A stretch of DNA of 37,355 nt, from the IMG/VR virus record IMGVR_UViG_3300028829_002503. One strand, 5' to 3'. The position numbers and the translations under genes were made by a program. This document shows, one piece after another, positions 6,542 through 25,055 of the stretch. The notes below the pieces were generated by a model. The model ran no database searches, was not told the origin of the DNA, and was given only the letters and a program-made list of their open reading frames with translations. Source of the DNA: a virus. Each line of letters starts with the position of its first letter. Positions within the stretch are counted from its first letter, which is position 1.

Positions 6542-7740
6542 CAGCCTATCACCTCAAACTCTGGTGTACAGAATACAAGTTTTCCGCCATCTTTAATCCA
6601 GTCTTTTAAAATTCTATTAACAAACAATTCTTTAAAGTGAAATGGGAACACTAAGAAGTAATCTGCTTTCTCTTTTGCTTCGTCTTCGTGTACAATAGGA
6701 ATACTACTACCAACTAGATACTTACCAATCTTATCTGGATGTATCTCTGCCGCACCACTAATCACATCACTATCTAGTCCATAGTATTGCATAATTGTAT
6801 TGCCTTTTGTACTAGCACCCATGATATAAACTTTCTTTCCGTTTTCTACTTCTGAACGTAAGAAGTTCATAGTGTCATCTCTATTCTTATCGATGTTTGT
6901 TTTCCAATCAGTGTATCGTTCTACTGAACAATTCTCTTCGTACTCACAACTACCTTCATTCAAGTGTCGAATATAAAGTTGATAACTGCCACCATTGATG
7001 TCGTTCTCACGTACTTGATATATCTCTAATCCATTACGTTCTAATAGGTTTACTAGTGATTGATACGAGTAGTATTCAATATGTTCATGTATCACATTGC
7101 CCAAGTCGTTAGTATCTAACATTGGTCTTGCAGTCATTAATTGGCAGACCCAAACACCACTTTCGTCTAATATATGTTTGATATCTTGTACGAATTCATT
7201 TGGATTATCTAAGTCATAGAACATAGCGACAGTAGTAACAATCTTTGCTTTACCATACCAGTCACCAATTTGCTTTTCCCAATTCTTCTTGTTGAAGAAG
7301 TCGCCTATCATAATATCACAGTTCTCTTTTAATTCTTTGTGAATATTCTGTGCTGGGTCAATGCCAACTTTTATCACGTTGTCAGGATAAAAACTTAGAA
7401 GTGTGCCGTCGTTTGCACCAATATCAACAACTAAGTCTTCGTCTTTTAGTTCCACTTCATACGATGCTTCTACTGTTATACTCTCTAAGTTATCAACAAT
7501 CTTTTTGTTCAACCTAGATAGATACCAATAATTTTTATACAGGTCTTCTTCTCGCACAGTATGAGTTAGTTGTACTAAATCACATTCTTTACAATGCACT
7601 AAGGCAAGTGGTGCTGTTCCTACATCTAAGTTTGGTTCTTTGACAAATGCATTAATTTTCAAATCTCCAATATCAAATACTGTGTTAAGGTCTTTGTTAC
7701 CACAACTTCGACATTCTTCTATTTGCTTAATATTTGCCAT
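6541..7740 (-). CDS. NDP-sugar C-methyltransferase (NovU/TcaB9-like, Zn-binding N-terminus)
   Basis: CRSC...CKEC zinc site, DIGANDG SAM motif, HEHIEYYS, C-terminal GASTKGNT domain. Confidence 0.9.
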   Translation of the reverse strand: MANIKQIEECRSCGNKDLNTVFDIGDLKINAFVKEPNLDVGTAPLALVHCKECDLVQLTHTVREEDLYKNYWYLSRLNKKIVDNLESITVEASYEVELKDEDLVVDIGANDGTLLSFYPDNVIKVGIDPAQNIHKELKENCDIMIGDFFNKKNWEKQIGDWYGKAKIVTTVAMFYDLDNPNEFVQDIKHILDESGVWVCQLMTARPMLDTNDLGNVIHEHIEYYSYQSLVNLLERNGLEIYQVRENDINGGSYQLYIRHLNEGSCEYEENCSVERYTDWKTNIDKNRDDTMNFLRSEVENGKKVYIMGASTKGNTIMQYYGLDSDVISGAAEIHPDKIGKYLVGSSIPIVHEDEAKEKADYFLVFPFHFKELFVNRILKDWIKDGGKLVFCTPEFEVIG

Positions 7741-8345
7741 TATAACTCCTTTATATAACTGATGTCAGGATACGTATATGACCCTGCAACATCTTCGTTG
7801 TATACTTTATTCTTAATAAAATTATGTAATCCTAACTCAGCAGTTTCTGGTGTCATAAACATATGATATCCCAAAACTTTCATCTTATCTTCTTCGTATG
7901 GAACACTCATATCTCTTCCATCATGTACCGCAAGTTGCGCCCAATCGTAAAAATCTTTATCATCAGTGAGTATCATTCCACCTTTAATAGTACTTAGTAT
8001 CTTTTTAAATTGAAAACTCAAGCAATGGTATGTTCCTGGTATATACATATCTTTTGTAAATCTAGGAGCACCATCTACGATGTTTGTAGGTTCAATTGGA
8101 TAAACACCTTTCCATTCTTTGTCTACAAAATTCACATCAAACCCAGCATGTATCATTTGCATTGGCGCACTAACATAAGTATTTTTTGGCATCTCAACAG
8201 TACAAGTTCCGTGTTTCTTCTTATAGTATATAGCACTTAAAAATATAGCATGACTACAACAGTCAGTTGCAATACTATATGGTGCATTGGCATAATCAGC
8301 CACTACTCTCTCAAACTTATGTACTGTGTCAAATGGATTTACCAT
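7740..8345 (-). CDS. DegT/DnrJ/EryC1-type PLP aminotransferase, short form
   Basis: FE...ADY...ATDCCSHAIFLS, PKNTYVS, IVDGA (PLP Asp), LSFQFKKIL (PLP Lys), GGMILTDD. Only 201 aa. Confidence 0.8.
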   Translation of the reverse strand: MVNPFDTVHKFERVVADYANAPYSIATDCCSHAIFLSAIYYKKKHGTCTVEMPKNTYVSAPMQMIHAGFDVNFVDKEWKGVYPIEPTNIVDGAPRFTKDMYIPGTYHCLSFQFKKILSTIKGGMILTDDKDFYDWAQLAVHDGRDMSVPYEEDKMKVLGYHMFMTPETAELGLHNFIKNKVYNEDVAGSYTYPDISYIKEL

Positions 8346-9139
8346 GTTATATCTACCAAAGTTGCAGTAATTGTATTTCCATAATTTCCATCTACTATAT
8401 TCGCAAACGGAATATCAGAATATTTCTTTTCTGTGCTGTTGTATTTTTTTAGCCAATTATGAAAAGCATCACTACTATATAGTTTCTTACGTCTTTCATT
8501 CTGAAAAAGAAATAAAGGTCCTACACTATCTATGTCCATTATATCTGAATTGCTAGGATTATCATCGTGTGCCCATGCTTCTTCAAAACTTCTTCCAACT
8601 CTACATTCATCATTTAAATATACATCTGCGGTTGTATCTAAAATATTGTCTTCAGTTACATGAAAGGCATATTCTTGTTGATTATGAGTTATATCAAATC
8701 CAAAAATATAATCGTTACCAACAGTTGCTTGTATATCCATATAATTTGGTGTAACTAAAGAATCTTCGTAATCATGTATGTTATGGTTGATTAATTGTAA
8801 ATCTTGTATATTATATCCACCTTTATTAAATGCAGTTGTAAATTGTCTATGTATTATATTACATTCTTCAATAGTCAATGAGTTGCCAATCGTAACTGCG
8901 GGTTCAATGCCAGTTAATCTAAAACCTTTTCTTAAATTTTCCAAAGCATCAATAGGTGTTTTTGTAAGCCAATGGCCCGAATAAGAGCGCCCTATTTCTG
9001 GTGGCAGTGGTCGTTGGTATAATTCAACATTATTTGTTTTACAGACTTTACAGATTTCTAATACTTTTTGATTCGTGGCGGTGTCGAACACGTCAAGTGT
9101 TAGGGTTTCGTTATTGTCAAATTTAAATTTCATTTCCAT
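8339..9139 (-). CDS. Hypothetical protein
   Basis: 266-aa ORF overlapping both neighbours. No family recognised. Start could be at 9133. Confidence 0.7.
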   Translation of the reverse strand: MEMKFKFDNNETLTLDVFDTATNQKVLEICKVCKTNNVELYQRPLPPEIGRSYSGHWLTKTPIDALENLRKGFRLTGIEPAVTIGNSLTIEECNIIHRQFTTAFNKGGYNIQDLQLINHNIHDYEDSLVTPNYMDIQATVGNDYIFGFDITHNQQEYAFHVTEDNILDTTADVYLNDECRVGRSFEEAWAHDDNPSNSDIMDIDSVGPLFLFQNERRKKLYSSDAFHNWLKKYNSTEKKYSDIPFANIVDGNYGNTITATLVDITW

Positions 9140-9530
9140 TTTTGTTCACTTTCACAATCGGGTCATTACATTTATCCCAATGTTTTGTTAACATACTGAC
9201 AAAAGAATAATCTTCTAATGCTCTGAATTTGTGAGATGTTCCAATAGGTATACGAATACTATCTCCTACTTCTAAGGTAATAGTAATATCTTCATTGTCA
9301 GACACAAATTCAGTATACTCACATCTACCAGAGACTACCATCATATACTCATTAAACTCTGGATGATAATGATATCCCCTTTCGTCACCTTTCTTAGTGA
9401 CCATAAGATTGTATTCAGTCAAGTTATCATCAATAGGAAAACTAAAGATTGTGCCACGACTATCTTTAAAGATGTCGGCAGATACCATTTCTGTTTTACT
9501 ATTCTCTTTAATCTTATTGTATCGCATCAT
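9123..9530 (-). CDS. Cupin, probable NDP-sugar epimerase/ketoisomerase (RmlC/FdtA-like)
   Basis: DSRG motif, RGYHYHP..NEY, GDSIRIPIGTSHKF cupin motifs; sugar-gene context. Confidence 0.75.
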   Translation of the reverse strand: MMRYNKIKENSKTEMVSADIFKDSRGTIFSFPIDDNLTEYNLMVTKKGDERGYHYHPEFNEYMMVVSGRCEYTEFVSDNEDITITLEVGDSIRIPIGTSHKFRALEDYSFVSMLTKHWDKCNDPIVKVNKNGNEI

Positions 9531-10728
9531 CTAACCATTTATAAACATTATCAAAATATGATTTTGTTATTTCTCTGAACTCTTTACTAAAATATCTTTT
9601 CTTATTATACACCAATCTGTCTTTCAATTCAAGTGTTTTTTCTGCTAATTCTTCTGGTGTTAATTGATTTATAATTTCCATCTGTTCAATAACCATCTCT
9701 ATACGTTTAAACATATCCTCTTCCAGGTCATAACTGTTATCAAATACATCATCAAAAGTATCAAATCCCCAATGTCGAAGAACTTCTAATGTTCTAGGTT
9801 GACCTATAATCATAAAAGGATGCATAAAGACAATTGCTTTAAATACTACTTCTGATACATAACAGCCAGGTCCTACAGGGCTACTTTCGGTTAACACACT
9901 CATAAAAGAGTTTTGATAAAATGATGCTGAACTCCATAAGGTATCATCATAGAAGCAACCATTTTCTTGGAATTCATCAACGTCAAGCACTAGTGGCAAA
10001 TCGTTCATAAATTTGTTCGCTTCTGTTCTCAATTTCTCAATATTGACAAGGTTATACTTATCATATATCTCACCATGTTTTTCTTTATCTGCTACTATCC
10101 ATTCAATGTGTTCTTCGAATGTCTCACCATCCATAGTCTTTGCACAACTTATCAGATTATTATCTAACATATTCATCTCACGCAATCTTAATAAGAAATA
10201 CATTCTATGAGGTTTATGTATTCTGTTGAAACTTAGAAATGTGTTATTGAATGTTCGTTGGTCTATAAATGTATTTGGTATATCATACTTAAATCCACCA
10301 GTTTTTGCTTCTTCCCAATAGTAATGATTCCATCCAGGAACAAAGAATGTCTTTATATTTGATTTGCTATTGTCTGATACAAAGAAGTCACCAGATGCCC
10401 AACAAGTATTTTTTATGTCTGCACCATGTTGCTCTAGTTTTTCATCAATGTTTATATTCTCATGGTAAAAGAAATTACCTTCAGAACATATAGGCTCTTG
10501 TACTGTGCTAATTACAACCCTTGATTCTTTGGGTAACTTCTTTGCTATACTACCATCTTTGACACATTCTATTCCTGCGTTTCCCAACTCTTGTGAAATT
10601 CTAGGTTCATATATTAATCTATTACTTTCTTCAAATTTTATATTATAATCGAAGAACATATTGTAAAGACACATCCACCATTGGTCGTCTCCCAAATTCT
10701 TGAATCTGGTTATGTCTATTGTTAGCAT
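9514..10728 (-). CDS. GT10-like putative glycosyltransferase
   Basis: FLSFNRIHKPHR, SFMSVLTES...YVSEVVFKAI..MHPFMIIG...GFDTFDDVFDNSYD. Paralog of 1..1144. Confidence 0.6.
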   Translation of the reverse strand: MLTIDITRFKNLGDDQWWMCLYNMFFDYNIKFEESNRLIYEPRISQELGNAGIECVKDGSIAKKLPKESRVVISTVQEPICSEGNFFYHENINIDEKLEQHGADIKNTCWASGDFFVSDNSKSNIKTFFVPGWNHYYWEEAKTGGFKYDIPNTFIDQRTFNNTFLSFNRIHKPHRMYFLLRLREMNMLDNNLISCAKTMDGETFEEHIEWIVADKEKHGEIYDKYNLVNIEKLRTEANKFMNDLPLVLDVDEFQENGCFYDDTLWSSASFYQNSFMSVLTESSPVGPGCYVSEVVFKAIVFMHPFMIIGQPRTLEVLRHWGFDTFDDVFDNSYDLEEDMFKRIEMVIEQMEIINQLTPEELAEKTLELKDRLVYNKKRYFSKEFREITKSYFDNVYKWLDDAIQ

Positions 10729-11687
10729 CCATCTATTCCATTGTGGACCATGTCAGTAGGTATATTATCTGTATTGAATGACAAATATCTCTTCATTGCT
10801 TCTGCCATAACCCAGTTTCCTTTTTTACTCATATGTCCGTCTTCTTTAGAGATAACCATGTCTTCTTCTTCAATTTTATTCTGTTTCATTACACGGTCTA
10901 TATCCGAAGTTAGATTCATATATATAAAATCATAACTTTCAAGTGATTCTCTATAATCTTTATTATATTTCCACCAATCATAATTGCCCCAATCTTGCAT
11001 CGTCCACCAAAAAACTTTCACATTGTGTATTTTGCTCAATCCTTTAACGAGTAATAAATTTCTTTGAAAATCTGATTGGTCGTTCTCTTCTGTATTTAAA
11101 GTCTCAAAAGCAGTTTGTATCTTAGTTACTAAACGTAAGTTGGTGGGATTCCAAGAATGTCCAGGAGAAATATTAACAGTTGAGTAGTGTAATTTATTCT
11201 CTTCAGTCCTATTTGTAAAGTATGTTCTTCTTGCATTGAACGAGAATCCACAGATAACATTCTCTATTTGATTTCCATATCTGTTACAATATTTTGAAAG
11301 AATATTTGTAATTAATGTATTACTTGCACCACGTATACCAACATTTATAACTTTGTAATCTTTGTATACGGAATCTTGTAAGTGCTTAGTCCACGTATCT
11401 TTATAATACATGCCATCACAAAACGTAAAACTATCACCCACACAAAGTACAATCTTATCTTCAGGATTTATTTTTTCTTCAGGTGAAAGACTTCTTGTTT
11501 GTAATTCTACATTCCAGTCATCACATATTTCATAGTGTCCTTCTCCGCATAAAGGATTCCGATGAGTTGCAGGAAGAATTGTATCAAGTGGAGAAAACAA
11601 TTGATTATCTGGTCGAAGATGATTTGGATCCTTGTCAGATTCTTTCCAATCATCTGCTTCTTTAAACGTCATCACGCAAATATCCAT
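10722..11687 (-). CDS. SGNH/GDSL-fold protein (putative O-acyl esterase/transferase)
   Basis: CVGDSFTF, NVGIRGASN, EDGHMS. Confidence 0.75.
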   Translation of the reverse strand: MDICVMTFKEADDWKESDKDPNHLRPDNQLFSPLDTILPATHRNPLCGEGHYEICDDWNVELQTRSLSPEEKINPEDKIVLCVGDSFTFCDGMYYKDTWTKHLQDSVYKDYKVINVGIRGASNTLITNILSKYCNRYGNQIENVICGFSFNARRTYFTNRTEENKLHYSTVNISPGHSWNPTNLRLVTKIQTAFETLNTEENDQSDFQRNLLLVKGLSKIHNVKVFWWTMQDWGNYDWWKYNKDYRESLESYDFIYMNLTSDIDRVMKQNKIEEEDMVISKEDGHMSKKGNWVMAEAMKRYLSFNTDNIPTDMVHNGIDGC

Positions 11688-12993
11688 CTAGTTCATAACT
11701 CAATTCAGGAAATGTCATTCTGAAATTTTCATTTCTTAATTTGTCTAATTCTTCATTATGTTCTAATGCTTTTTTTAGAGAATCGATATCTGTTGGTGCA
11801 GATTCATATGAAACTAATTGATTTATCAATGTGTGTATTGCCCATTCTCTTTCACCAGAGTCAATTGCCTCTAATGGTCCGTCTTTCTCAAAGTAGTTTC
11901 TCATTTCTTCTGTGACTAATTTTCTTAATTCTTGTGGCAAAACATTTACACTATAGTAGTCTGGTTGAGTAACAAAATTGTGATGAACTTGAAGTTCATT
12001 GGCTGCCGCCCATTCTAACATATCTACTAGATAAAAATAATTCATCCAACTTACTGTCTGTGTTACTGAGAATTTAAATTTTTTCTTTTGATGAAATGGT
12101 AAATCTTTTCTTGCTTTTTTAAGCATATTAACTGATTTTGTAACATCTGTCCATTTTGTAGGATGTCTTATGTATTCGTTTCTATCTTCAACATCATCTA
12201 TACTAAATCCAACCTCAACATAATCGAATTGTTTCCAAATTTCAATTATTTCTTCAGTCATGTTAGTCATATTGATGTTATACCATAATTTTACATTAGT
12301 TCTTCCTGCTTTAATCATTCGTTTTAAAAATCTAAAGTGTTCTTTAATTAAAGTAGGCTCTCCACCATTGATATAAAATACTTTGGCATTTTTTGAATTT
12401 TCGAACAAGTCGTCCCAGAACTTTTCTTGCTCTGGCCAATCGAATTGATTCATCCCCTTGTCAAATAAATCCAGAGTAGTAAATTTACTTTGCAATTTGT
12501 TATAGTCTGCTATCCATTTACTACTACTCCAAGGATTACATGTTCTGCATTTAGCATTGCATATATTGCCTAATCGTAGTTCAATGAATTCTAAATTAAT
12601 CTCTTTTATAGACCCATCTTCATTTGTGTTCGCTCTTGCTATTTCTTCAGTGTGATGAGAATATATTTCATTCTCTCTAAGTCTCTTACTATGAATTCCA
12701 TTCTCTTCTTCTCTAAAGCATCTTTTACATGTAACTGGCTCTTCTCCATTTAACATCTGAAGCCTTAGTTCATTAAATGAATCTGCATTCATTAATTGCT
12801 CAATTGAGTGGTCTTTTAGATTTAAGAACTCATCATTACCAACATTATTTGGTAAGACATTTTTTCTAACTGGTGCCCAGTTTCTTGCCCTAGATATTCC
12901 ACCTTCATGATTCGCAACACAACAAATTGTTGTTCCGCCGTGTGGGTGTGATGCTAAGTGCATCCAAGGTAATGAACAGAATACTTTACTCAT
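11662..12993 (-). CDS. N-terminal twitch domain radical SAM protein
   Basis: FCSLPW...ICC...CKRC at the N-terminus, CNAKCRTC, INGGEP. Start placed at ATG 12993 (MSKVFC), overlapping the upstream stop. Confidence 0.9.
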   Translation of the reverse strand: MSKVFCSLPWMHLASHPHGGTTICCVANHEGGISRARNWAPVRKNVLPNNVGNDEFLNLKDHSIEQLMNADSFNELRLQMLNGEEPVTCKRCFREEENGIHSKRLRENEIYSHHTEEIARANTNEDGSIKEINLEFIELRLGNICNAKCRTCNPWSSSKWIADYNKLQSKFTTLDLFDKGMNQFDWPEQEKFWDDLFENSKNAKVFYINGGEPTLIKEHFRFLKRMIKAGRTNVKLWYNINMTNMTEEIIEIWKQFDYVEVGFSIDDVEDRNEYIRHPTKWTDVTKSVNMLKKARKDLPFHQKKKFKFSVTQTVSWMNYFYLVDMLEWAAANELQVHHNFVTQPDYYSVNVLPQELRKLVTEEMRNYFEKDGPLEAIDSGEREWAIHTLINQLVSYESAPTDIDSLKKALEHNEELDKLRNENFRMTFPELSYELDGYLRDDV

Positions 12994-14392
12994 CCCAACA
13001 CTCCATCCACCAATCGTATAGTTCAGGACAATGCTCTTGGTAAATGTCTTCGATTGTAGGCATACCAATTTGTTTATCTTTTCTTATTTCACTTAATTTT
13101 GCTTGGAACTGTCTACCGCCAACTGATGGCTCGTGGTGGTCATTCCATTGTTCTGCAAATGTTGGTCTATTTTTCATTTCATGTAATGTTTTAATTAGTG
13201 TATCTTGGTTTCTATCTGCAAGTGGTTCCATATAATCTAGGTTGTCTTGTATAACTTTATCAAGTATGTGCCTAGGCCATGCAAATGGAGAGAATACCAT
13301 ATCTGGATGGAATGCAAACATCATCTTTGTTTCCATTCTTACACCAAGTTCTTGGCTCAAATCGAATAATTCTTTTAATGAGAACATACCTGGACCTGTG
13401 ATTGTTAGGTCTAATAACATCTTGTCTTTACCACCAGGTAACATACAACCCTGTTTGAAGTTTTCTAACCACTCTTCCCACACTAAACCAGTTCGAATGA
13501 ATTCACCAATTTTACCTGTACCATCAATACTTGCACACATCATCCAATCTTTAAACTGTGGTAAATAGTCATACAAGTTTTTACCTTTGAATGTAACCCG
13601 AGACAAGTTAGAATTATATCGAAGATAACAATCTTTGGCAGTTCCTGCTTGTGTCATCTTTTCTAATGTTTCCCAATGAATATCATACATGAGAGGTTCA
13701 CCACCAACCCAATATATTTCTTCTACAATGCCCTCGTCAATCGCTTTTCTAAACTCTGGCTCGACAACATTAACAGTAAATGAATTCATTTTCTTTTTTA
13801 CATCTGGTATCATAAACGGATGCTCTTCAGGTGACCACAACTTGTGTGTCTTTTTTTCTGCTTCCCAACTTGAACTCAATAGTTCTCCGCACATTCTACA
13901 CTTGAAGTTACATAGATTACTGAAGCGGTAATCGAATGAGATTGTAGGCATAGATGTTCTACCCTCATCATCTGTCTTCTCAAATGCTTCTTCAATCTTA
14001 TGTTTGAATAGATGACCTGTAAACCATTTCTTATATGAACTCAAACTTAGGATGTCATCGTTACAAACGTCACACTGTGGAATAGTTTCACCTGCCATAA
14101 GTTTCTTTCTTATGTTCATCATATATGGTGAGTTCCAATGTTCTTCTAATGTAAGTGGATTGAAATCGTCTGCTTTTGTTTTGACTTTCTTTTCTATACC
14201 GTACGAGTCATCATTTGATGCATCAATGTATTGTTTTTGAAACTGGTGTTCCTCACGTGATGCACAGCACATTCTTCTTTCACCTTGTGGTGAAATGTAA
14301 GTGTGTGTCCATGGTGCCATGCAAAAAGTTTTGTTTTTACTTTCTTCAGCACAACTGCCATCATCTTTCCATATTGGTATAATTTTACTCAT
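12986..14392 (-). CDS. N-terminal twitch domain radical SAM protein
   Basis: FCMAPW...MCC...CDVC, CNFKCRMC, VGGEP, SIDG. Confidence 0.9.
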   Translation of the reverse strand: MSKIIPIWKDDGSCAEESKNKTFCMAPWTHTYISPQGERRMCCASREEHQFQKQYIDASNDDSYGIEKKVKTKADDFNPLTLEEHWNSPYMMNIRKKLMAGETIPQCDVCNDDILSLSSYKKWFTGHLFKHKIEEAFEKTDDEGRTSMPTISFDYRFSNLCNFKCRMCGELLSSSWEAEKKTHKLWSPEEHPFMIPDVKKKMNSFTVNVVEPEFRKAIDEGIVEEIYWVGGEPLMYDIHWETLEKMTQAGTAKDCYLRYNSNLSRVTFKGKNLYDYLPQFKDWMMCASIDGTGKIGEFIRTGLVWEEWLENFKQGCMLPGGKDKMLLDLTITGPGMFSLKELFDLSQELGVRMETKMMFAFHPDMVFSPFAWPRHILDKVIQDNLDYMEPLADRNQDTLIKTLHEMKNRPTFAEQWNDHHEPSVGGRQFQAKLSEIRKDKQIGMPTIEDIYQEHCPELYDWWMECWDE

Positions 14393-15666
14393 ATTAGACT
14401 CTTCTCAACATGCATACTTTCTAATGTTTCTTTTATAATAGTGTTAGTTTCTTTACCACAAAATATAGAGCAAGATTTTAATCTCTTTTCTCTTATATCT
14501 CTATTTTCAAATGTTTCCATATATCCTGTTGTGTATATTTCACTGTCAATTATTTCTTTCATAGTGTGATGTTCTAATGAAATAGCATTATCACCAAATG
14601 AGTGTATAAATTTTCTTAGCGGTAAAACCATATCTCCTCCACCAAACTCGTCATCATATTGTGCGGCATGATAACAGCACGGAAAAACTAAACCGTAACT
14701 ATTAACAAATATATGCTTATCTTCAATCGCTTGGCAGTTTATATCACATTTACCTAGACGCTCTTCATGTGGAGTCAATTCTCTCCATTTACTTGAGTCA
14801 GGAATTTCTGAATATGGGGCTGAATATATCCCCCAGTTTACAGGCTCAAGCGGAATTATAGAGTTAGATAAGTCTTCTGTTATGTCCTTAAGATATCCAG
14901 TTATATCATTATCTGTAAGTTCCTTATTTTCAGCACATTCACCTAAATTACGACCATCTTGCTGTTCATTCACATTTTCATATTTATTAAGAGGTGGCTT
15001 AATTGTATATTGATATTCTCCATATCTTCCATATACCCGCATATCATGTTTTTCGTCACCGTTTTTGTCCGTAACTGCATGAAATCCCATTGCCTTTTTA
15101 GCATAGAACCTATCAAATCCTAGTTCTAAAGAAAGTTGGCGTGCTTCTTCTACTTGATGTTCGTTGTGTCTAAAGACAAGAAATTCCCATTGTGCTAATG
15201 CACCAGTTGATATAAAAGATTTCATAGCAACCATTATCTTATCCCAATGTGTGCCTTTTCTATATATCCAATTCGTGTCTTCAAGTCCGTCAACACTAAA
15301 GATTAATTCTCCATTTCCTTTAAATAGTTTACCTAATTCTTGCCAAAACTCTTGGTCTCTTCCACTGGCATTTGTATTCATGCGAAATCGTATAGTCGGG
15401 TTTACAGACCTAAAATATTTTAGAATAGGAATCAACTCTGGATTAGTCATCGAATCCCCATAATTTCCACACATTGTTAACAATTTTAATTGTTTAATAA
15501 AGTCTTCTGGAAACCATTCCTTGACTTGTTTGAGGGTCATATATGTTTCTGTGAATATTTTATTTTTTATTCCACCACTTGCTCTCCTAGAACACGATGG
15601 ACACTCAGCGTTACATAAACTACTAGTCTCTATATCTAATCTTGTTATGTGTTTATATTCAATCAT
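14389..15666 (-). CDS. Radical SAM protein with C-terminal SPASM/twitch domain
   Basis: CNAECPSC near the N-terminus, CGNYGD, FSVDG, C-terminal C...GLVFPCC...CSIFC. Start placed at ATG 15666. Confidence 0.9.
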   Translation of the reverse strand: MIEYKHITRLDIETSSLCNAECPSCSRRASGGIKNKIFTETYMTLKQVKEWFPEDFIKQLKLLTMCGNYGDSMTNPELIPILKYFRSVNPTIRFRMNTNASGRDQEFWQELGKLFKGNGELIFSVDGLEDTNWIYRKGTHWDKIMVAMKSFISTGALAQWEFLVFRHNEHQVEEARQLSLELGFDRFYAKKAMGFHAVTDKNGDEKHDMRVYGRYGEYQYTIKPPLNKYENVNEQQDGRNLGECAENKELTDNDITGYLKDITEDLSNSIIPLEPVNWGIYSAPYSEIPDSSKWRELTPHEERLGKCDINCQAIEDKHIFVNSYGLVFPCCYHAAQYDDEFGGGDMVLPLRKFIHSFGDNAISLEHHTMKEIIDSEIYTTGYMETFENRDIREKRLKSCSIFCGKETNTIIKETLESMHVEKSLI

Positions 15667-16252
15667 ATTTTTTCCAAGCCTCCATAACTTCAGGCATATT
15701 GTCAATAAGGTTCATCTTTTCTTCTTTTGTATTCTGTTTTACAAATTTTCCTTTATATTCTTTAACATTAATGTCTTCATATGCAATATTTATGATTTTA
15801 AACTTATGACTTAATTCTTGTAGTGCGTTCTGGTAATCTTTATCAACCCGGTGAAATGTCTTTACTTTTTCATCTACGTCTTTTATCTTAAATTTTTTAT
15901 ATTTTTCTTTATTCTCACTATTCCAGTGTTTACTATTATAACTTATATGCCAACTTAAGAATTGTTCAAGTAAATCTTTTCTGTAACTATTAATAATCAA
16001 ATCAGGATTTACAACTTCAACGATATCTATGGGATTATATTGTGGCAAATCAGATGGATATTCATCAAAGAATAGTTTACAAGACCAATTCTTTTCTATT
16101 GTTAGTCTACTAATACTTTTTTTAAATTCTGATTCGCCCTTATCAAGGATAATACCTTCACCGAGCATATTAAGATTTAATTTATTTGCCCAAATAGTTT
16201 GCACTATAGTTGTGCCACATCTGCCATGTGAAGATATAACCAGTAATTTCAT
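15659..16252 (-). CDS. Stf0-like PAPS-dependent sulfotransferase
   Basis: 5'-PSB loop SHGRCGTT, LGE, 3'-PB motif RKDLLEQFLS, IAYED. Confidence 0.75.
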   Translation of the reverse strand: MKLLVISSHGRCGTTIVQTIWANKLNLNMLGEGIILDKGESEFKKSISRLTIEKNWSCKLFFDEYPSDLPQYNPIDIVEVVNPDLIINSYRKDLLEQFLSWHISYNSKHWNSENKEKYKKFKIKDVDEKVKTFHRVDKDYQNALQELSHKFKIINIAYEDINVKEYKGKFVKQNTKEEKMNLIDNMPEVMEAWKKYD

Positions 16253-17797
16253 TTAACTTCCTAAGTTATCAGTTTCAGTATTCCAACCTGGAACATTTTT
16301 TACCTCATGTTCGTCATCTCCACCCTCGTATTTTTCAGTAGTTGCAGGGTCTGCCATAAATATTTCCATTGTATTAGTTGGATTATTAGAATTCAAAATT
16401 TGGTCACGGTTGGGTACTTCTGCGTCTAAAGATTTAAACCATTCTGCCAGAGGTCCAGGAAAAGTAGATACAAAGTCTTTATTTCTACGAACATCATATT
16501 GTGAAAAGAATGATTTAAAATCGTTGTATAACTTCGGAGTCTCCGCAGTATTTTTGTGTGGAGTTTTTATGATATCTAAGTAGTCAATTAGTCTCTGTAC
16601 ACTAGCCTTTTCACCCTCGTCAAGCATTGATTGTGGTCTTTCACTTATAAACCAATCATTGAGTTTTTCCATATAATGTGTCTTAATGTCTTCAGGTAGA
16701 ATTGCCGCACTTTGAAACGATGGGAATCTTAAAATATTAAGAGACAACACTGGCGCACGTTCTTTGTATTCTTCACGCAAGTCTAACATCTCATCTAAAA
16801 ACTCTGTTATAGAGTTTAGACAAAGAGAATTGATTGTCATCATCATAAACAATTGTGACACATTTCCTTCTTTAAGAAGACGATGTATATTTTCCATCCA
16901 GTATTTGTAGTCTAGTCCATCACGGATGTACTCGCCTTGTATACCTGTTGCTTCCATAGATGTGTATATGTGAAGATTAGGAATATTGTGTGATTTTTCA
17001 ATCAACTTATCAAAAACTTTAGGAGTTTCTGGACATAAATTACTATTAATCGCAAAACGCATCTCACGGTTTCTACCTGGATTATTCTCAAACCAATCAA
17101 ACAATTTCCATGTGCCTTTATGCATAATAGGTTCACCACCAGTGATACGTATCTCTTCTAAAGAATCTGCTAAGTCACTTTCCCACCATTTGTGGAATGC
17201 TTGAATGTATGGATTATCTTCTTGTTTTCTTGTTGCGGGTTCTGCCCAAGGTGCTGTATCTTGGAAGTGTCCACGACCATCAGACTGGATGTTCTGATAT
17301 CCACCATAGTCATTAATGTCTTTAACCCATGCTGTACTAAATGCTGGATTACAATAAGAACATTTAAAGTTACACGCCCTATCAAAAGATATCTCAAGTG
17401 TCTTTAAATTTACATTCTCTTCCCATGGCATTGTCGCTGTTTTTTTAATATCTTCATCTGTAAATATTTCAGTTTTAAATGTTCTATCTGAAATATGTCC
17501 TTTGCCCATATCTTCAACTTTCCAACAATACTCACACTCAGATGGACGTTCTCCTTCTTGCATCATCTTACGCATCAATTTCTTATGAGGTGTATTATGA
17601 ATTGCCGAGGGATTATCTTTTAATTCTTCGAGTGGAATCCAATGTCCCGGTGGGTGATGACAACTTGTAGTTTGTCCATGTCCCAACCAGATAGTAGCAT
17701 TGTACCATTTAGCGGCACAATAAGAGGGACTGATAACATCAATTACTCTTTTTTTGTATTCTGGGTAAGTCTCAATACCAATTCTTCCTCTATTCAT
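16253..17797 (-). CDS. N-terminal twitch domain radical SAM protein
   Basis: CAAKW...SCHHP...CEYCW, CNFKCSYC, ITGGEP; acidic C-terminal extension. Confidence 0.9.
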   Translation of the reverse strand: MNRGRIGIETYPEYKKRVIDVISPSYCAAKWYNATIWLGHGQTTSCHHPPGHWIPLEELKDNPSAIHNTPHKKLMRKMMQEGERPSECEYCWKVEDMGKGHISDRTFKTEIFTDEDIKKTATMPWEENVNLKTLEISFDRACNFKCSYCNPAFSTAWVKDINDYGGYQNIQSDGRGHFQDTAPWAEPATRKQEDNPYIQAFHKWWESDLADSLEEIRITGGEPIMHKGTWKLFDWFENNPGRNREMRFAINSNLCPETPKVFDKLIEKSHNIPNLHIYTSMEATGIQGEYIRDGLDYKYWMENIHRLLKEGNVSQLFMMMTINSLCLNSITEFLDEMLDLREEYKERAPVLSLNILRFPSFQSAAILPEDIKTHYMEKLNDWFISERPQSMLDEGEKASVQRLIDYLDIIKTPHKNTAETPKLYNDFKSFFSQYDVRRNKDFVSTFPGPLAEWFKSLDAEVPNRDQILNSNNPTNTMEIFMADPATTEKYEGGDDEHEVKNVPGWNTETDNLGS

Positions 17798-19197
17798 TTT
17801 TTGTCTCCGGCAGTTTTTATACTATCATACCAATCTACGATGATAGGGTCAAAAGTCTTTCTAAAATCTTTATTTCTTCTTTTATCATATTGTGTATAAA
17901 ATGATTTAAAATCAATTTGTCTCTGTTCGAGTTTATCGGCAGTAATAGGGTTATTTATGATGTCGTTAAGTTGGGACAACAATCTTGTTACATGGACATC
18001 TTCAATATCAATTAACTCTGCTTTTCTTTTGTCATACCACTCCTGTATTTCATCAGTGTAGTGTTGTAGTATATGAGTTGGCAATGTAGACATACTCTGA
18101 AATTCTGGATTATATACAGGATTTAACGACAATATTGGTCCACGAAGCATTCTCGTATTTATAGGTTTATCTTTTCTTATATCTAATATTTTGTCCATAA
18201 ACTCTGTTATCGAATTTAGACACAAAGCATTTATTGTCATCATTACATATACCCTTTGTACTTGTGTTTCATTTAGTATTCTTTCAACATTTATTACCCA
18301 TCTATCGTAATCTATTCCATCTCTAATATACTCTGCATGGGCACCTACAGATTCATTGCTTGTAAATATTTCAAAATTCGGAACACTATCTGCTATATCT
18401 AATAACTTCTGAAATGTTTTTTCTTTGTCTGGAACGAGATTAGAATTAATAGATAACCTAATATTATCACCTCGACCTGGATTTTCTTTAAACCATTCAA
18501 ATAATCTCCAAACACTTGGATGCATAATAGGTTCGCCACCCGTAATACGAAGACCCTCTAACGTGTCTACTAATCCGCCTTCTACATCCCACCATTTCCA
18601 AAATGCTTGAATATAAGGATTCACTTCTTCTGATTTAGGTGCAATTTCTGCCCATTCTGCGTCACTTTTATAATGCATTCTTTTATCGCTATCAAGACCG
18701 ATATACGGTCCATTGTCTTTGATATCTTTTGCCCATGTCGTACTAAATGTTGGACCACAATATGAACAAGCAAAGTTACAGGCTCTATCGAATGATATTT
18801 CTAATGTTCTTAAAAATGTGTCTTTATCCCAGTTTACTAACGGAATTTGATTTAAATCATTCTCAGTATAGTTTACAGTCTTAAGCACTCTTTCAGATAA
18901 GTTCTCTTCTTGTAAATCTTCTACATTCCAACACTTGTAACATTCTGCAGGTCTTTCACCTTCTAGCATTGACAATCGTTGTTGTTTTTTATGATTTGTG
19001 TTATGAATTGCTGTAGGATTATTTTTGAGTTCACTTATCGGAATTTCATGGGCGGCGGGAAGATGACAACTAACTGTGTGTCCATGTCCGAGCCATATAG
19101 TCGCTCCGTGCCATTTCGCACCACAAAACGTAGGACTAATTGGATCCATAACCCTTTTCTTATATTCTAAAAGTGTTTCGGATTCTAACTTTTTCAT
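17794..19197 (-). CDS. N-terminal twitch domain radical SAM protein
   Basis: CGAKW...SCHLP...CYKCW, CNFACSYC, ITGGEP. Close paralog of 16253..17797. Confidence 0.9.
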   Translation of the reverse strand: MKKLESETLLEYKKRVMDPISPTFCGAKWHGATIWLGHGHTVSCHLPAAHEIPISELKNNPTAIHNTNHKKQQRLSMLEGERPAECYKCWNVEDLQEENLSERVLKTVNYTENDLNQIPLVNWDKDTFLRTLEISFDRACNFACSYCGPTFSTTWAKDIKDNGPYIGLDSDKRMHYKSDAEWAEIAPKSEEVNPYIQAFWKWWDVEGGLVDTLEGLRITGGEPIMHPSVWRLFEWFKENPGRGDNIRLSINSNLVPDKEKTFQKLLDIADSVPNFEIFTSNESVGAHAEYIRDGIDYDRWVINVERILNETQVQRVYVMMTINALCLNSITEFMDKILDIRKDKPINTRMLRGPILSLNPVYNPEFQSMSTLPTHILQHYTDEIQEWYDKRKAELIDIEDVHVTRLLSQLNDIINNPITADKLEQRQIDFKSFYTQYDKRRNKDFRKTFDPIIVDWYDSIKTAGDKK

Positions 19198-21005
19198 CTA
19201 TGATATTTGTCCTGGTACTCTTCTGCCGCTTCATCCCAAAACTCCTTCATCTCAGGAAATGTTTCTAAGAAGTTTAATCCACGTCTTTTATCATATTGAG
19301 TGAAGTATTGGTAAAATCGAATCAGTCTATCACTTAATTCGTCTTCATACATTGCTTCGCCCTCTTTAGCCCATGCTAAATCCCTCTCAAGTTTTAATAC
19401 TTCGTAGTTTTTAAATCCTTTATAAGTTTTTCCATAAACTTCATCAGAACAAACATTCGCTTTCATATAATCGATGTTGTCTTCTATAACTGTTAACAAC
19501 TCTTGGTCGCACAATTGAATATTAAACCAATTAGGGTCTCTTAAATATGGCAAATCAAACCAAATCTTCTGAGCCAAGACTTTATGTTTGTTATCTATTT
19601 GATATTGATACCCGTATTTTTCTCTTAGTTCTAACATATAATTTAAAAATCCACGCAAAGAAGGAACACTCAATAAGTTAAATGTGTTAATAAATGTCAC
19701 ACTAACTCTAGTGGTCTCTGTAAGAAGTCGGTCAACATTACGTTTCAATTTCTCAAAATCTAAGCCGTCACGCATGTACTCTGCTTGTGGTCCTATGCCA
19801 TCTACGCTAATAAAAACACTAATATGTTTACATGCAACGTTGTCAAATATATGATTCCACTTGCCCCATTCGTTGTTTCTTTTATAGTGATTCATGTATA
19901 AGAAACTATTGTCATCTGGTTCTATGCATGGACCTAATCCAGTGAACTCCTGTTTGATATCTTCAGCCGATATAGTATCTACATTAGGTTGAATTTCGTG
20001 TGGAATAATACCATGTAATGTTTCTTCTAAAATATACTGTGTCCAAGTTTTCCAATGACTTCCATCTTTTGGGTCTTTTACATAGAATATAATATTTCTA
20101 AGTCCGTCATCATTTGATTTTGGCTTTTCAAACAACGTGTCGAAATCTACCTCTACTACAGTTGGGTCATTTTCTGCAATAAGTGGTTCTTCTAATACTT
20201 TTACTTTCTCAATAAACTTATCAAATAATGCATCATCTGGAGGACACATATTCGTAGTCAGTGAAACTTCTAAATCAGGATTTGGATTATCTCTAATATA
20301 ATCTAATACTTTAAAAGTATTTTTATCCATAAGAGGTTCACCACCAGTCATACGAAAAATCTTTAGATTAGAATATATATCCGGAAACCATTTCCAAAAT
20401 GCTTCAATATAAGGATTATCTTTACGTGCAACTTCTAATGGCATTAAGCCAATAGTTTTGAGTTCTTGTACGTTATTATGGCCACCACCGTCATCGAAAT
20501 TAAATGAACCATGTTCTTTGATATCATCTTCCCATGCAGTAGACAAGTGAGGCGAACAATATGCACACTTGAAGTTACATGCTTGATTAAAATTGACTTC
20601 GACATATCTAGGAGCAATGTCATGGTCCCAAGCATTTTCTACTACTTCATTCCAAGCATCTTTAACCCACCACTCACTACTGCGATAATGTCTATCACTT
20701 AGTCTGCCACCTTCTGGTGGATTTGCGGCATCTTCTACATTCCAACAGTACTGACATCCCTTTGGTCTGTCACCATTTAACATTTGTCTACGTTCATGTA
20801 GTTTAAACTGTGTATTATGTAGTGCGTTTGGATTTGCCTTTAACTCATCTAATGGAATAGCATGAGTAGGGGGATGATAGCAACTGTGAGTTCTACCTTG
20901 TGGAAGATGCAAACTGACTTGTAGCCATTTTGCCATACACATTGAAGGCGATATGTCGTTTAACTTGCCTCTTGTAGCAATCGCATCATCATCGTAGTTT
21001 GCCAT
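19194..21005 (-). CDS. N-terminal twitch domain radical SAM protein with a large internal insertion
   Basis: CMAKW...SCYHP...CQYCW, CNFKCAYC, MTGGEP, SVDG; C-terminal YDKRR motif shared with its neighbours. Confidence 0.9.
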   Translation of the reverse strand: MANYDDDAIATRGKLNDISPSMCMAKWLQVSLHLPQGRTHSCYHPPTHAIPLDELKANPNALHNTQFKLHERRQMLNGDRPKGCQYCWNVEDAANPPEGGRLSDRHYRSSEWWVKDAWNEVVENAWDHDIAPRYVEVNFNQACNFKCAYCSPHLSTAWEDDIKEHGSFNFDDGGGHNNVQELKTIGLMPLEVARKDNPYIEAFWKWFPDIYSNLKIFRMTGGEPLMDKNTFKVLDYIRDNPNPDLEVSLTTNMCPPDDALFDKFIEKVKVLEEPLIAENDPTVVEVDFDTLFEKPKSNDDGLRNIIFYVKDPKDGSHWKTWTQYILEETLHGIIPHEIQPNVDTISAEDIKQEFTGLGPCIEPDDNSFLYMNHYKRNNEWGKWNHIFDNVACKHISVFISVDGIGPQAEYMRDGLDFEKLKRNVDRLLTETTRVSVTFINTFNLLSVPSLRGFLNYMLELREKYGYQYQIDNKHKVLAQKIWFDLPYLRDPNWFNIQLCDQELLTVIEDNIDYMKANVCSDEVYGKTYKGFKNYEVLKLERDLAWAKEGEAMYEDELSDRLIRFYQYFTQYDKRRGLNFLETFPEMKEFWDEAAEEYQDKYHR

Positions 21006-21998
21006 TTAGTGTCCGCTCCACCCTGTGGATTTTTCTGTCGCTAATGGATTATCACTTCTTGGTGGATTTGTATAAACCTCTTTAAAGAATGAACTTGTTT
21101 CTGGTGTAGGGTCTGTTATTTGCATTCTGATTCTTTCACTTAGAATATCACCAATTCGTAAAGCCTCATCATATAACTTTTCGTAATCCCATTCTACACC
21201 GGTTCTACTACATTTTTCACTATTATTATCACTTGAACAAGTGGGCAGTACTTCTTCTTCAAAATATGACTTGAACCAATCAAACGATGAGATATTTTCT
21301 AGTTTATAATCTTCCACAAAGTTTACATCATAGCACCCAAGCCTTGCTCCGTAACAAGCCCATAGACCATTTTCAACATCAGCACCAACGTTACACCATG
21401 TTAATAGTCTTTGATAATTTTTATGCCATATTCTCTTTTTAAAGTCTTCGATTGGCACTGTTTTGCCTTCGTCTAACGACATTTTAACACCCTCACGGTA
21501 TCCTGCACGAAATGCCTGAAATGGTGAGCCTGCATTATATACCTCTGAGTATATGTTGTTCATCTGGATATAATTCAAATCCCAACAGAAGTCTACTTTC
21601 TTTGTTTCATCTTCTGCATTCTCGTGTGTTTTCATTTCTAACACCAAGTCTACCGGCCAACATTTAATACCACCATTACCATATACAAGACCATTTATCA
21701 TGTTCTTTGCACTCCAACTAACTATAGAGTTTGCTAGGTCAGTATCTTCTGGAAATGAAATTGCTAAATCAAAAAACTTTTCATCAACAATATTGTCTCC
21801 ATCTATTGTTATAAATCTTTCTGTTTCACTTTGCTTTGCACATTCTTTATGTGCATTGTCAAATCCTTTTACTCCGTCAACTCTCTTAGCAAAAGGAAAC
21901 TTCATCATTAGATTCGCCCAATGTTCTTCCTTTGCTGGTTCATCGTAACTGATGTAAAATACATCTAAGTCACCGATTATTACTTGCTTCGATTTCAT
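21006..21998 (-). CDS. Putative GT-A fold glycosyltransferase-like protein
   Basis: DVFYISYDE first strand, FITIDGDN (DxD after a hydrophobic strand), GNGGIK. Confidence 0.55.
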   Translation of the reverse strand: MKSKQVIIGDLDVFYISYDEPAKEEHWANLMMKFPFAKRVDGVKGFDNAHKECAKQSETERFITIDGDNIVDEKFFDLAISFPEDTDLANSIVSWSAKNMINGLVYGNGGIKCWPVDLVLEMKTHENAEDETKKVDFCWDLNYIQMNNIYSEVYNAGSPFQAFRAGYREGVKMSLDEGKTVPIEDFKKRIWHKNYQRLLTWCNVGADVENGLWACYGARLGCYDVNFVEDYKLENISSFDWFKSYFEEEVLPTCSSDNNSEKCSRTGVEWDYEKLYDEALRIGDILSERIRMQITDPTPETSSFFKEVYTNPPRSDNPLATEKSTGWSGH

Positions 21999-22001
21999 AA
22001 T

Positions 22002-22568
22002 TTACTCCCACGAATATTTGTCAAAATACTTCTGAGTGTATACACTCACATTGTATTTATTATATGATAACTTAATGCTTTTTCCAGAAGACAAAAGTTC
22101 TGAGAATGGCACTAATATTGTCTTTATTAAGAAATCAGGTCTATCTTTGTGGGTCACGAAGAACACATGTTCTGTCTTGCCAGCAATAGTTACTACTTGG
22201 TTTTCATCTATTCCTATCACTTCTTTGAGTTTGTCGTTAGCAGTGAACACTAATGTCTCGTCCTCTAGTGAAAGTAGTATATCTGCATCTTCTGTTTGTT
22301 GTATCTTATGTAGTTGATTATCTTTGTTTCTTCTTTTGATATCAACTTTTGTTTTAATAATTTCGAAAATGAGTGGATTATCAGTTCTACTAACTATGTA
22401 ATCAGAGAACTTATATTTTCCTTCAAGGAATGGCTTAATATCTTCTACTTCAAACCAAGCACATAAGTCCTTTGTGTCTTGTATTTGCCTTGATATTTGT
22501 GTGATAGCACTAAATCCATCAAAGTAAACAGCACGGCATGTATCAGTCTTTTCTAGCACACTTTTCAT
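22002..22568 (-). CDS. Hypothetical protein
   Basis: 188-aa ORF, ATGA-coupled to the upstream gene. No motif recognised. Confidence 0.7.
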   Translation of the reverse strand: MKSVLEKTDTCRAVYFDGFSAITQISRQIQDTKDLCAWFEVEDIKPFLEGKYKFSDYIVSRTDNPLIFEIIKTKVDIKRRNKDNQLHKIQQTEDADILLSLEDETLVFTANDKLKEVIGIDENQVVTIAGKTEHVFFVTHKDRPDFLIKTILVPFSELLSSGKSIKLSYNKYNVSVYTQKYFDKYSWE

Positions 22569-23521
22569 AATACTGCATCCTCAAGTTGTTTAATTTTAGT
22601 ACTGTCCATCCAATTCTTCTCTACATAATGCACAGGCAGTGTTTGAGTAAAGTTACCAATCTTAACTTGTAAATCATCTCCCATCTCACTTGTTATGCTT
22701 TTAGTCCAGATAGAGTTTATTTCGCTTTCTGGTATATTCTGTACCATACTTTTCATATGAACAAAAGTCGGAACATCTTTGATATTATAGTCACATGTTT
22801 CCTCTTCGATGTCTAATAGTTGAATAGCCAATGCATATGCGATATCGGCACTCATCCAGTTCTGTCCCATTCCACTAAGAAACTTATCAAAGTAAGCATT
22901 CCAATGTGTCATAATCAATTCAACCATTTTGAAGAACATAAATGTTTCTTGTGATTTCTTAAAATAAGTAAAATTACTATATATATTTGGTAAGTTTAAT
23001 AGTGTAAACTTCTTTCTATAATAGTCACTCGTTACATCTTCGTTTCTGAAAGTCTTAACATTCGTACAGAACCAAAGATTTTTTGTTGATAGATAATCCC
23101 ACCAGTGGTCAACACTATCAGTGAATATCATATCACTATCTAGGATAATTGTTTCATGGTAAGGTGTCATATGTGAATATTTCCACTTATTATGTATCTT
23201 CCATTTATCACCCTTTGCATCATCATTCCAGGGAATATCAACGATGGCATCAAATACTTCTCTATGTCTGTCTGTAATTAACTTTTTAGTTTCTTCGTCT
23301 ACACATACACAAAGTTTATTAATTTTCTGTGTTGCTTTTAAACTTAGGGCAAGAGCATATGACATTTCTAAATAATCATTGTCTTCACTATTTTGAGCAA
23401 TAGTTATATATCCTTTAGTCGATGTGGGATTTTTAAACCAATCTGGATTCTCTTTTACTTTATCTCTCCAATCACTCCAGTCTGGATTAACTGGTGGAAC
23501 ATAAGTATCTTTTTCAACCAT
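22565..23521 (-). CDS. GT-A fold glycosyltransferase-like protein (GT8-like)
   Basis: KGYITIAQN, ALALSLK, TPYHETIILDSDM (DxD), SADIAYALA, FVHMK. Confidence 0.7.
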   Translation of the reverse strand: MVEKDTYVPPVNPDWSDWRDKVKENPDWFKNPTSTKGYITIAQNSEDNDYLEMSYALALSLKATQKINKLCVCVDEETKKLITDRHREVFDAIVDIPWNDDAKGDKWKIHNKWKYSHMTPYHETIILDSDMIFTDSVDHWWDYLSTKNLWFCTNVKTFRNEDVTSDYYRKKFTLLNLPNIYSNFTYFKKSQETFMFFKMVELIMTHWNAYFDKFLSGMGQNWMSADIAYALAIQLLDIEEETCDYNIKDVPTFVHMKSMVQNIPESEINSIWTKSITSEMGDDLQVKIGNFTQTLPVHYVEKNWMDSTKIKQLEDAVL

Positions 23522-24389
23522 TTACTTTTTCTCCATGTTTCAGAAAGTCATCAATAAGTCTTCCTATTGCTTTCTTATTCATAATATGAATATCTGTTTT
23601 AGTGAACCTTGATAATAGGTGATTACTAATTTGTTCTGCATCAGCACAATACATAATAATATCTTCATGTGAATTTATTCTAAAGATATCATCAAGGTCG
23701 AAACTATTACTAAGATAGTCTATAGGCAAAGATGGAACTTCAAAAGCAACCCCACCATTCAATATATGTAATGCCATAGAAAATGCAAAATCATTTCTAT
23801 ATAAATTGCCACTACAGTTATATAGATAATAATAATACTTATAATTGTATTTTATATGATTTACAAGAGTGAATAGATTTTCTGCATATTCAGATTTTTT
23901 AAAGTAGACTATTGTTGCCCAGAACATAGGAATACTAAAATTATCAATATATTCAATGTTCACTTTGTGTCTGTCTGCAATATCTCTGAACTTAGAGTTA
24001 ATCATTATATCATTTTCACTGCCCCATACTTGGTCGAGAACATCGTTCATAATGAAATAGTCACTATCTATGACTAACGTTTCGTCATATGGAGACAAAT
24101 CATATACATCGCCTCTACCTAAGTTCTTAAAGGATGCATACTCAGTGTTTTTCACGGTGTCTTTAAATAATCTTACATTATCAGGTTGAAAAGTATCGCT
24201 AATAATTACTTTATCAAAGTATTCATTTATCTTTTCAGCATTAGAAACAAGTGTCTCTGTGTTTGTTATTAGGCATATCTCATCAAACAATGACAGATTT
24301 TTTCTGGCAAAGCCAGCACAAGCACATGCCTGTGAAGCATAATCGACATACTCATTATTTTGAGCAAATATTATAATACCTTTACTCAT
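23514..24389 (-). CDS. GT-A fold glycosyltransferase-like protein (paralog of 22565..23521)
   Basis: KGIIIFAQN, SPYDETLVIDSDY (DxD), RNDFAFSMA, HIMNK. Confidence 0.7.
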   Translation of the reverse strand: MSKGIIIFAQNNEYVDYASQACACAGFARKNLSLFDEICLITNTETLVSNAEKINEYFDKVIISDTFQPDNVRLFKDTVKNTEYASFKNLGRGDVYDLSPYDETLVIDSDYFIMNDVLDQVWGSENDIMINSKFRDIADRHKVNIEYIDNFSIPMFWATIVYFKKSEYAENLFTLVNHIKYNYKYYYYLYNCSGNLYRNDFAFSMALHILNGGVAFEVPSLPIDYLSNSFDLDDIFRINSHEDIIMYCADAEQISNHLLSRFTKTDIHIMNKKAIGRLIDDFLKHGEKVNG

Positions 24390-24390
24390 A

Positions 24391-24783: not shown

Positions 24784-24808
24784 ATATTTTTCTCCTATAA
24801 TAGTACTT

Positions 24809-24837
24809 ATAATACTATATATAGGGCAAAAAGTCAA
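24809..24837 (-). promoter_or_regulatory. Sigma70-type promoter for the 22-gene run
   Basis: Minus strand TTGACT (24837-24832), 17-nt spacer, TATTAT (24814-24809), followed by SD and ATG. Confidence 0.7.
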
Positions 24838-24874
24838 CCCTAAAGTGAAGAAATATCTGTTAAATTAGTAGAGG

Positions 24875-24922: not shown

Positions 24923-24924
24923 TA

Positions 24925-25050: not shown

Positions 25051-25055
25051 TTATA

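Follow-up and report, generated by a model that had tools for sequence, protein, structure and literature searches.

We analysed a 37,355-nucleotide stretch of viral DNA (IMG/VR record IMGVR_UViG_3300028829_002503), which we call the window at its whole length and which comes from an uncultured marine jumbo myophage. Nearly all genes of the window lie on the minus strand. On that strand, between 11662 and 21005, we find an array of six co-directional, tightly packed and intact open reading frames (ORFs), each with one CxxxCxxC motif of the radical S-adenosylmethionine (SAM) enzymes. We call them A (11662-13068, with a likely ATG start at 12993), B (12986-14392), C (14389-15705, with a likely ATG start at 15666), D (16253-17797), E (17794-19197) and F (19194-21005; 603 amino acids, aa). 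The neighbouring array genes abut or share 4 nucleotides, and therefore no space is left between them for a small or precursor ORF. A single 197-aa ORF (15659-16252) interrupts the array between C and D. At its head, the array adjoins g21 (21006-21998), a glycosyltransferase-like gene.

Scanning the six proteins with the whole-protein hidden Markov model NF033640 (N_Twi_rSAM) of NCBIfam, whose curated cut-off is 170 bits, we find that A (359.3 bits), D (317.4), B (305.6), F (303.6) and E (289.3) are members of this N-terminal-twitch family. C reached 57.5 bits and is not a member. Its Pfam domains follow the usual order, Radical_SAM at residues 26-166 and then a SPASM domain at 324-413, while the Pfam SPASM match lies N-terminal to the core in A (residues 31-117) and in B (residues 24-111). 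The general radical SAM family PF04055 matched the array proteins with E-values of 2e-9 to 1.5e-5; A, B and E exceeded its gathering cut-off of 29.5 bits, and C, D and F fell just under it (25.6-28.7 bits). The MoaA equivalog TIGR02666 gave 32-33 bits, on the GGEP strand only, against a cut-off of 284, and the viperin family NF038283 gave 15-24 bits against 180, so neither assignment holds. Significant family matches exist for every gene, and orthologues turn up in 80 related loci; the array is not a product of chance.

Comparing the proteins pairwise, we could separate three subfamilies. Class 1 comprises D, E and F, with the motif CxAKW...SC(H/Y)...CxxCW (SCY in F), four N-terminal cysteines and identities of 51% (D/E), 41% (D/F) and 34% (E/F). 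Class 2 comprises A and B, which share FCxxPW...CC...CxxC and 25% identity. Identity between classes is about 20% (20-25%), and C stands apart from both N-twitch classes. Behind its GGEP strand, F has about 125 additional residues (~268-394) that are missing from D and E. The orthologues of F come in two size forms of about 522 and about 600 aa. A preliminary description of the window, made from the sequence alone, had put forward six CxxxCxxC radical SAM genes in three subfamilies, five of them with an N-terminal twitch and one with the usual C-terminal twitch; all of this is borne out.

We compared 80 related IMG/VR loci and observed one gene order on one strand: a gene for a 2970-aa protein, g27 to g22, g21, F, sometimes E, D, and then B and A, with variable segments after D, after B and after A. 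Orthologue clusters place F in 69 loci, B in 65 and A in 37; g21 heads the array, usually directly before F, in 55. D is the most conserved core member, with at least 7,978 homologues in a search that scored the 8,000 best candidates, and identities of 59-99% among the 120 matches listed. E, a paralogue of D, is confined to the closest relatives. As many as 10 radical SAM genes lie within 10 kb on either side of D. Clustering 480 array ORFs of at least 300 aa at 45% identity yielded 47 clusters, and the CxxxCxxC motif is kept in all 480. The paralogue lineages share 20-25% identity between classes, and each of them is 55-95% conserved across phages and keeps its position. In loci whose four upstream neighbours have a mean identity of 31% to the window, the D orthologues show 61% and the B orthologues 63%; the array enzymes reach roughly double the conservation of the genes around them. 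A complete genome of 342.6 kb with terminal repeats (G001, the record of locus L035) contains 15 matches, of which 11 exceed the NF033640 cut-off, and partial related records contain 7-21 matches each. The array of the window is a small version of a lineage-wide cassette. The size of six genes given in the preliminary description is right for the window and understates the phenomenon.

A megablast search of the array against 50,697 phage records gave no match. A protein search gave only Ralstonia phage RsoM2USA (53% identity to D) and two Vibrio phages (23%). The RsoM2USA gene, gp202 (locus L001), is a D-type N-twitch gene annotated as hypothetical, and this cultured jumbo phage is a possible experimental model.

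Performing an exhaustive profile search over 1.84 billion cluster representatives, we obtained 8,826 clusters (50% identity) at E ≤ 1e-30. In Bacteroidota, 3 of 301 sampled genomes reached the cut-off, whereas five related phage records have 7-21 matches apiece. One copy each was found in three named assemblies that are not metagenome-assembled genomes (MAGs): Agaribacillus aureus, Reichenbachiella faecimaris DSM 26133 and a Paenibacillus sp. The diversity of N_Twi_rSAM is concentrated in large aquatic phages, and the family is rare in cells. In a FastTree phylogeny of 134 sequences, the class-1 clade (D/E/F) contains only phage sequences and three MAG contigs with the whole cassette in phage order, and most bacterial sequences fall in one class-2 sub-branch; the bacterial sample had been seeded with class-2 queries and is biased towards class 2. 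The contigs L085, L091 and L093, which are filed under bacterial MAGs, show g24-g23-g21-F-D-...-B in phage order with five to six N-twitch genes each; L091 and L093, of 148 and 183 kb, belong to Haliscomenobacter MAGs. All three are probably pieces of jumbo phages placed in the wrong bin, or else prophages. Around the bacterial homologues, the 133 neighbouring genes include 11 radical SAM genes, six of glycosyltransferase family 2, five PhyH genes, three carbamoyltransferase genes and four B12-binding domains, which are typical of B12-dependent radical SAM enzymes. A BLAST comparison shows that eight bacterial loci share a carbamoyltransferase with the phage cassette.

We then aligned 24 representatives of the paralogue lineages to follow residue conservation, given here in D numbering. 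Four N-terminal cysteines (C27, C46, C88 and C91) and the three core cysteines (C142, C146 and C149) are invariant, and so are S154, GGEP at 220-223, N253, S280, R292 and R438, the last within a C-terminal YDxRR..F..FPE motif. The corresponding cysteines of F are 23/42/84/87 and 143/147/150. Class-2 proteins have one additional cysteine, which forms the CC pair, and no other cysteine is conserved family-wide in the 24 representatives. This absence argues against the cysteine-donor (hydrogen-donor) mechanism of the known radical epimerases. The family-conserved cysteines of C are 31/35/38, 79, 324, 343, 344, 412 and 416.

In a profile comparison, positions 7-86 of the family aligned to residues 183-259 of BtrN, its C-terminal twitch domain (E 6e-6). 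The auxiliary cluster of BtrN has four cysteine ligands and a very low potential, and it has been proposed as the electron acceptor of a two-electron oxidation; that of MoaA has three cysteines and an open iron site which binds the substrate (PMC9012708). By this four-Cys versus three-Cys difference, the N-twitch proteins are of the BtrN type. The alignment of the four invariant N-terminal cysteines to the BtrN twitch argues for one fully cysteine-ligated auxiliary [4Fe-4S] cluster with a role in electron transfer. The preliminary description had expected about two [4Fe-4S] clusters per enzyme, and the seven invariant cysteines would fit this number. When we compared the C-terminal domain of C with the N-terminal twitch profile by hhalign, only the C...CC hairpin aligned (E 0.002-0.003, probability 10-13%); we base the homology of the C-terminal and the N-terminal twitch on their shared Pfam SPASM matches, not on this alignment.

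The core and the overall fold are less specific. The best core profile match is TigE (1e-11), followed by SkfB and BlsE. The AlphaFold2 model of D has a predicted local distance difference test score (pLDDT) of 89.9 and a predicted TM-score of 0.88. Foldseek placed SkfB, SuiB and anSME on top for this model, each with a TM-score of about 0.3, and the VIA Z-scores were 12.9 for BlsE (239 residues aligned), 12.4 for SkfB and 11.7 for MoaA. None of the solved structures searched with Foldseek and VIA has the whole N-twitch architecture, and PDB searches with single sequences gave nothing meaningful.

Family members are also found fused. Many N-twitch fusions of 770-1,200 aa came out of the exhaustive profile search, and the top 150 representatives include 33 natural fusions of two complete N-twitch modules, one of them with three modules, so that at least 33 fusion clusters exist. 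An earlier search for proteins longer than 1,057 aa had found none. One protein, P0126, combines an F-like with a D-like module, arranged as in the array, and P0135 and P0123 join the neighbours of another array. This Rosetta-stone pattern suggests that adjacent paralogues cooperate, perhaps as hetero-oligomers. Open frames of 1037 aa in the related records had been considered as fusions and were rejected, as the ORF calls show separate genes there. Some other members are fused to Sel1 or tetratricopeptide (TPR) repeats (P0182, P0212 and P0174). TPR and Sel1 repeats usually bind proteins.

The relatives also carry genes that could serve such enzymes. G001 encodes an A-type Fe-S carrier (33777-34079), a flavodoxin (68932-69318) and a SAM synthetase (72898-73299); MetK is present in two partial relatives, and an Fe-S carrier in the partial relative G005. 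The three G001 genes form a support kit for radical SAM chemistry. A large iron and SAM demand had been predicted for this phage in the preliminary description, and its relatives would meet it with these genes. They agree with a report on a T4-like marine viral genome, TARA_ERS488813_N000010, in which 12 radical SAM genes and an A-type Fe-S carrier were noted in passing (Nishimura et al. 2017, PMC5332604).

At the array's head stands a gene with a glycosyltransferase-like product. We found no Pfam match for g21. Its AlphaFold2 model (pLDDT 86) resembles TarP, WrtF, RmlT, SunS and PBCV-1 A64R in Foldseek, with a probability of 0.9-1.0 but a TM-score of only about 0.3. The DxD motif (D66, D68) is invariant, and its Atlas cluster is a viral 'Glycosyltransferase 2-like' one; we describe g21 as a putative GT-A-fold, glycosyltransferase-like gene.

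On the downstream side (3572-11687, minus strand), Pfam matches identify sugar-tailoring genes, several of which recur after the array in relatives. They encode a short-chain dehydrogenase/reductase (SDR) of the epimerase/dehydratase type, a short uridine diphosphate (UDP)-sugar dehydrogenase, a redoxin, a TylF-type O-methyltransferase and a sugar C-methyltransferase; further genes encode a short DegT protein, a cupin, a 404-aa protein without assignment and SGNH esterases. The UDP-sugar dehydrogenase-like gene (4462-5265, 267 aa) and the DegT-like gene (7740-8345, 201 aa) are far shorter than their families, yet relatives conserve them at 70-92%. Possibly, both are truncated or split genes that remain in use. 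In relatives, the variable part holds the same kinds of genes and, in addition, a carbamoyltransferase and 2-oxoglutarate (2OG) oxygenases. The sugar context noticed at first holds in the window and across the 80 related loci of phages; in bacteria it is weaker.

The upstream co-directional block (22002-37353, minus strand) comprises g22-g27, which have no functional assignment, and the genes of the 2970-aa virion protein and of a baseplate wedge subunit, identified by PHROG matches; the synteny of the block is conserved. The 2970-aa protein, encoded next to the baseplate gene, matches phrog_10938 ('virion structural protein'), and the baseplate wedge subunit at the right end of the window matches phrog_10646. 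Scanning 9-27 kb, we find the strongest terminator-like site just upstream of g25, a hairpin at 24913-24885 (minus strand) with a 12-bp stem and a T run. From about 24837 through the array, the coding strand has only two weak stems of 5-6 bp (24638-24622 and 22048-22033), and the scan for promoters and terminators was otherwise at chance level. The cassette, which lies behind the baseplate and fibre genes, is probably a single co-directional working unit.

The 197-aa ORF is a variable cassette member with homologues in 11 loci. It has no match in Pfam, NCBIfam or PHROG. The preliminary description had called it a sulfotransferase and the only interruption of the array; it is the only interrupting ORF, and the sulfotransferase label, which was based only on an SxGRxGTT-like motif, is rejected as unsupported by the databases.

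Contigs from RNA libraries (four runs of one metatranscriptome study) extend over 8000-27000, with a flat depth near 10x; this attests the presence of the region and is uninformative on transcription, because DNA carry-over would also give such a flat depth. In two of these runs, X3 and X4, contigs connect 16004 with 9590 through 39 letters of unrelated sequence. This junction indicates a co-occurring strain without the 404-aa gene, SGNH2, A, B, C and most of the 197-aa ORF.

Taking the locus and its relatives together, we propose, with a probability of about 0.5, that the six genes encode working enzymes of a phage-borne cassette for glycan or sugar tailoring. The sugar-type neighbour genes favour this reading, though not decisively. 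Each N-twitch enzyme would bind the SAM-cleaving [4Fe-4S] cluster on CxxxCxxC and a second, auxiliary [4Fe-4S] cluster on the four invariant cysteines of its N-terminal twitch, the homologue of the BtrN C-terminal twitch. The 5'-deoxyadenosyl radical would then take hydrogen from one specific C-H bond of a sugar, and the auxiliary cluster, as proposed for BtrN, would remove the second electron to leave a keto or otherwise activated sugar. Such a sugar could be processed by the DegT-like aminotransferase, the C- and O-methyltransferases, the SDR and the SGNH esterases, and in relatives by the carbamoyltransferase. The GT-A-like g21 and other transferase-like genes might assemble or attach the glycan, and candidates for the acceptor are the virion surface, the host envelope or another structure. 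F, D, B and usually A may act as a conserved core on a conserved scaffold, which E, C and the many extra paralogues of relatives would diversify. We infer the substrate class and the target from the context, and the specific two-electron oxidation by analogy with BtrN. The preliminary description had gone further, to sugar epimerase, dehydrogenase or dehydratase chemistry; the sugar context of that proposal stands, its specific chemistry and substrate are conjectural, and the family as a whole has no extra cysteine that could act as the hydrogen donor.

Several points weigh against the tailoring proposal. All evidence on the substrate is indirect. The closest core profile match, TigE, is an enzyme of ribosomally synthesised peptides with post-translational modifications (RiPPs), and the fold matches of D describe a generic radical SAM barrel on which sugar, peptide and cofactor enzymes are tied. 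The bacterial neighbourhoods are mixed (115 Pfam families in 133 genes), with glycosyltransferases at only about 5%, and the bacterial sample has its class-2 bias. None of the members examined is fused to a nucleoside diphosphate (NDP)-sugar-binding domain, and the Sel1 and TPR fusions leave room for a protein substrate. The RNA-library contigs, as said, speak for presence and not for expression.

Alternatively, the enzymes could be protein or peptide maturases that introduce a crosslink, an epimerisation or an oxidation, as anSME, SuiB and EpeE do, into the 2970-aa fibre-like protein or into some other protein of the phage or host. Peptides or proteins are the substrates of most characterised SPASM/twitch enzymes, TigE and SkfB lead the core profile matches, and SkfB, SuiB and anSME lead the Foldseek matches. 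The Sel1/TPR fusions, the TPR genes near bacterial homologues and the position of the array directly behind virion genes point the same way. Yet Pfam reveals no RiPP recognition element (RRE) or PqqD-like domain, a divergent RRE still being possible, and the abutting and overlapping genes leave no room for a precursor gene. Outside the core, there are only four invariant cysteines and one class-specific cysteine, which indicates one four-Cys auxiliary cluster rather than the two-cluster, seven-Cys SPASM motif. Moreover, glycosyltransferase-like genes, sugar-nucleotide genes and an O-carbamoyltransferase are constant company in phages and bacteria. We regard maturation of a protein or peptide as rather unlikely. 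We hold a similarly low expectation for a cassette that makes a free small molecule of the aminocyclitol or deoxysugar type, or a modified nucleotide for DNA hypermodification, through BtrN-, DesII-, BlsE- and AprD4-like steps on soluble intermediates. The BtrN-type twitch domain and BlsE as the top fold match would suit it, and so would the DegT protein, the TylF-type O-methyltransferase, the sugar C-methyltransferase and the TobZ/NodU-type carbamoyltransferase, all typical of antibiotic sugar pathways; the very high conservation of D, F and B would suit a fixed small substrate. But the most constant partners are glycosyltransferase-like genes, the cassette lies in the structural module and not among replication genes, and 47 paralogue clusters in about 80 loci look more like surface-antigen diversification than a fixed pathway.

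The paralogues could also be redundant or decaying duplicates without distinct roles, for which only the tandem arrangement and the recent D/E duplicate (sisters in the tree) speak. The catalytic and cluster cysteines are intact in all 480 ORFs, and the lineages are old, each conserved and fixed in position. On this conservation pattern, we reject redundancy as highly improbable. Within the tailoring proposal, a more elaborate form is possible, although we hold it only tentatively and doubt it more than the general reading. Here the ordered paralogues, probably hetero-oligomeric, would form a self-supported radical assembly line for position-specific C-H oxidation or rearrangement on a polymer-level virion glycan or glycoprotein, with a repertoire that diversifies like a surface-antigen locus. 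If true, it would establish a new class of post-assembly glycan editing and give a family of about 9,000 clusters its first function.

Whatever the product, the phages spend 10-20 kb on oxygen-sensitive Fe-S enzymes in iron-poor surface seawater and add their own support genes, so that the product must bring an important gain. Its identification would assign a chemistry to an orphan family, could reveal new radical sugar or protein chemistry, and could explain a conserved yet variable feature of marine jumbo-phage virions or infected cells. In the literature, we found no characterised member of NF033640, no solved structure, and no functional study on the family or on phage, viral or jumbo-phage radical SAM enzymes; the arrays are not described there beyond a gene count. 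The gene set of TARA_ERS488813_N000010 is the same phenomenon, which PMC5332604 reports without family assignment, synteny or function for its radical SAM genes.

Compared with known systems, A, B, D, E and F have the order of NF033640, an N-terminal twitch, the CxxxCxxC core and a helical C-terminal domain. They differ from that family at large in forming an ordered multi-paralogue array in a phage, and the class-1 (CxAKW...SCH) lineage occurs in our sample only in phages or phage-like contigs. BtrN, the 2-deoxy-scyllo-inosamine dehydrogenase of butirosin synthesis (PDB 4M7T), has the fully ligated, four-Cys auxiliary [4Fe-4S] twitch that is predicted here, and its reaction, on a sugar-like substrate, neighbours an aminotransferase step. 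Its twitch is C-terminal, whereas that of five of the six genes here is N-terminal, and there is no overall similarity beyond the twitch and the generic core. The cytosylglucuronate decarboxylase BlsE, DesII and AprD4 resemble the array in their sugar-pathway context, to which the UDP-sugar dehydrogenase-like gene of the cassette corresponds; the BlsE match is tied with SkfB and MoaA, its identity is 12-14%, and its domain order is another one. TigE, SkfB, SuiB and anSME give the best core matches and use an auxiliary cluster for electron transfer. Unlike these, the array shows no RRE or precursor gene, its enzymes are predicted to have one auxiliary cluster instead of two, and the auxiliary domain stands at the opposite end. 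In summary, the N-twitch architecture is a domain-order variant of the known twitch enzymes with a BtrN-type cluster, and these phages use it as an ordered, diversifying multi-paralogue set.

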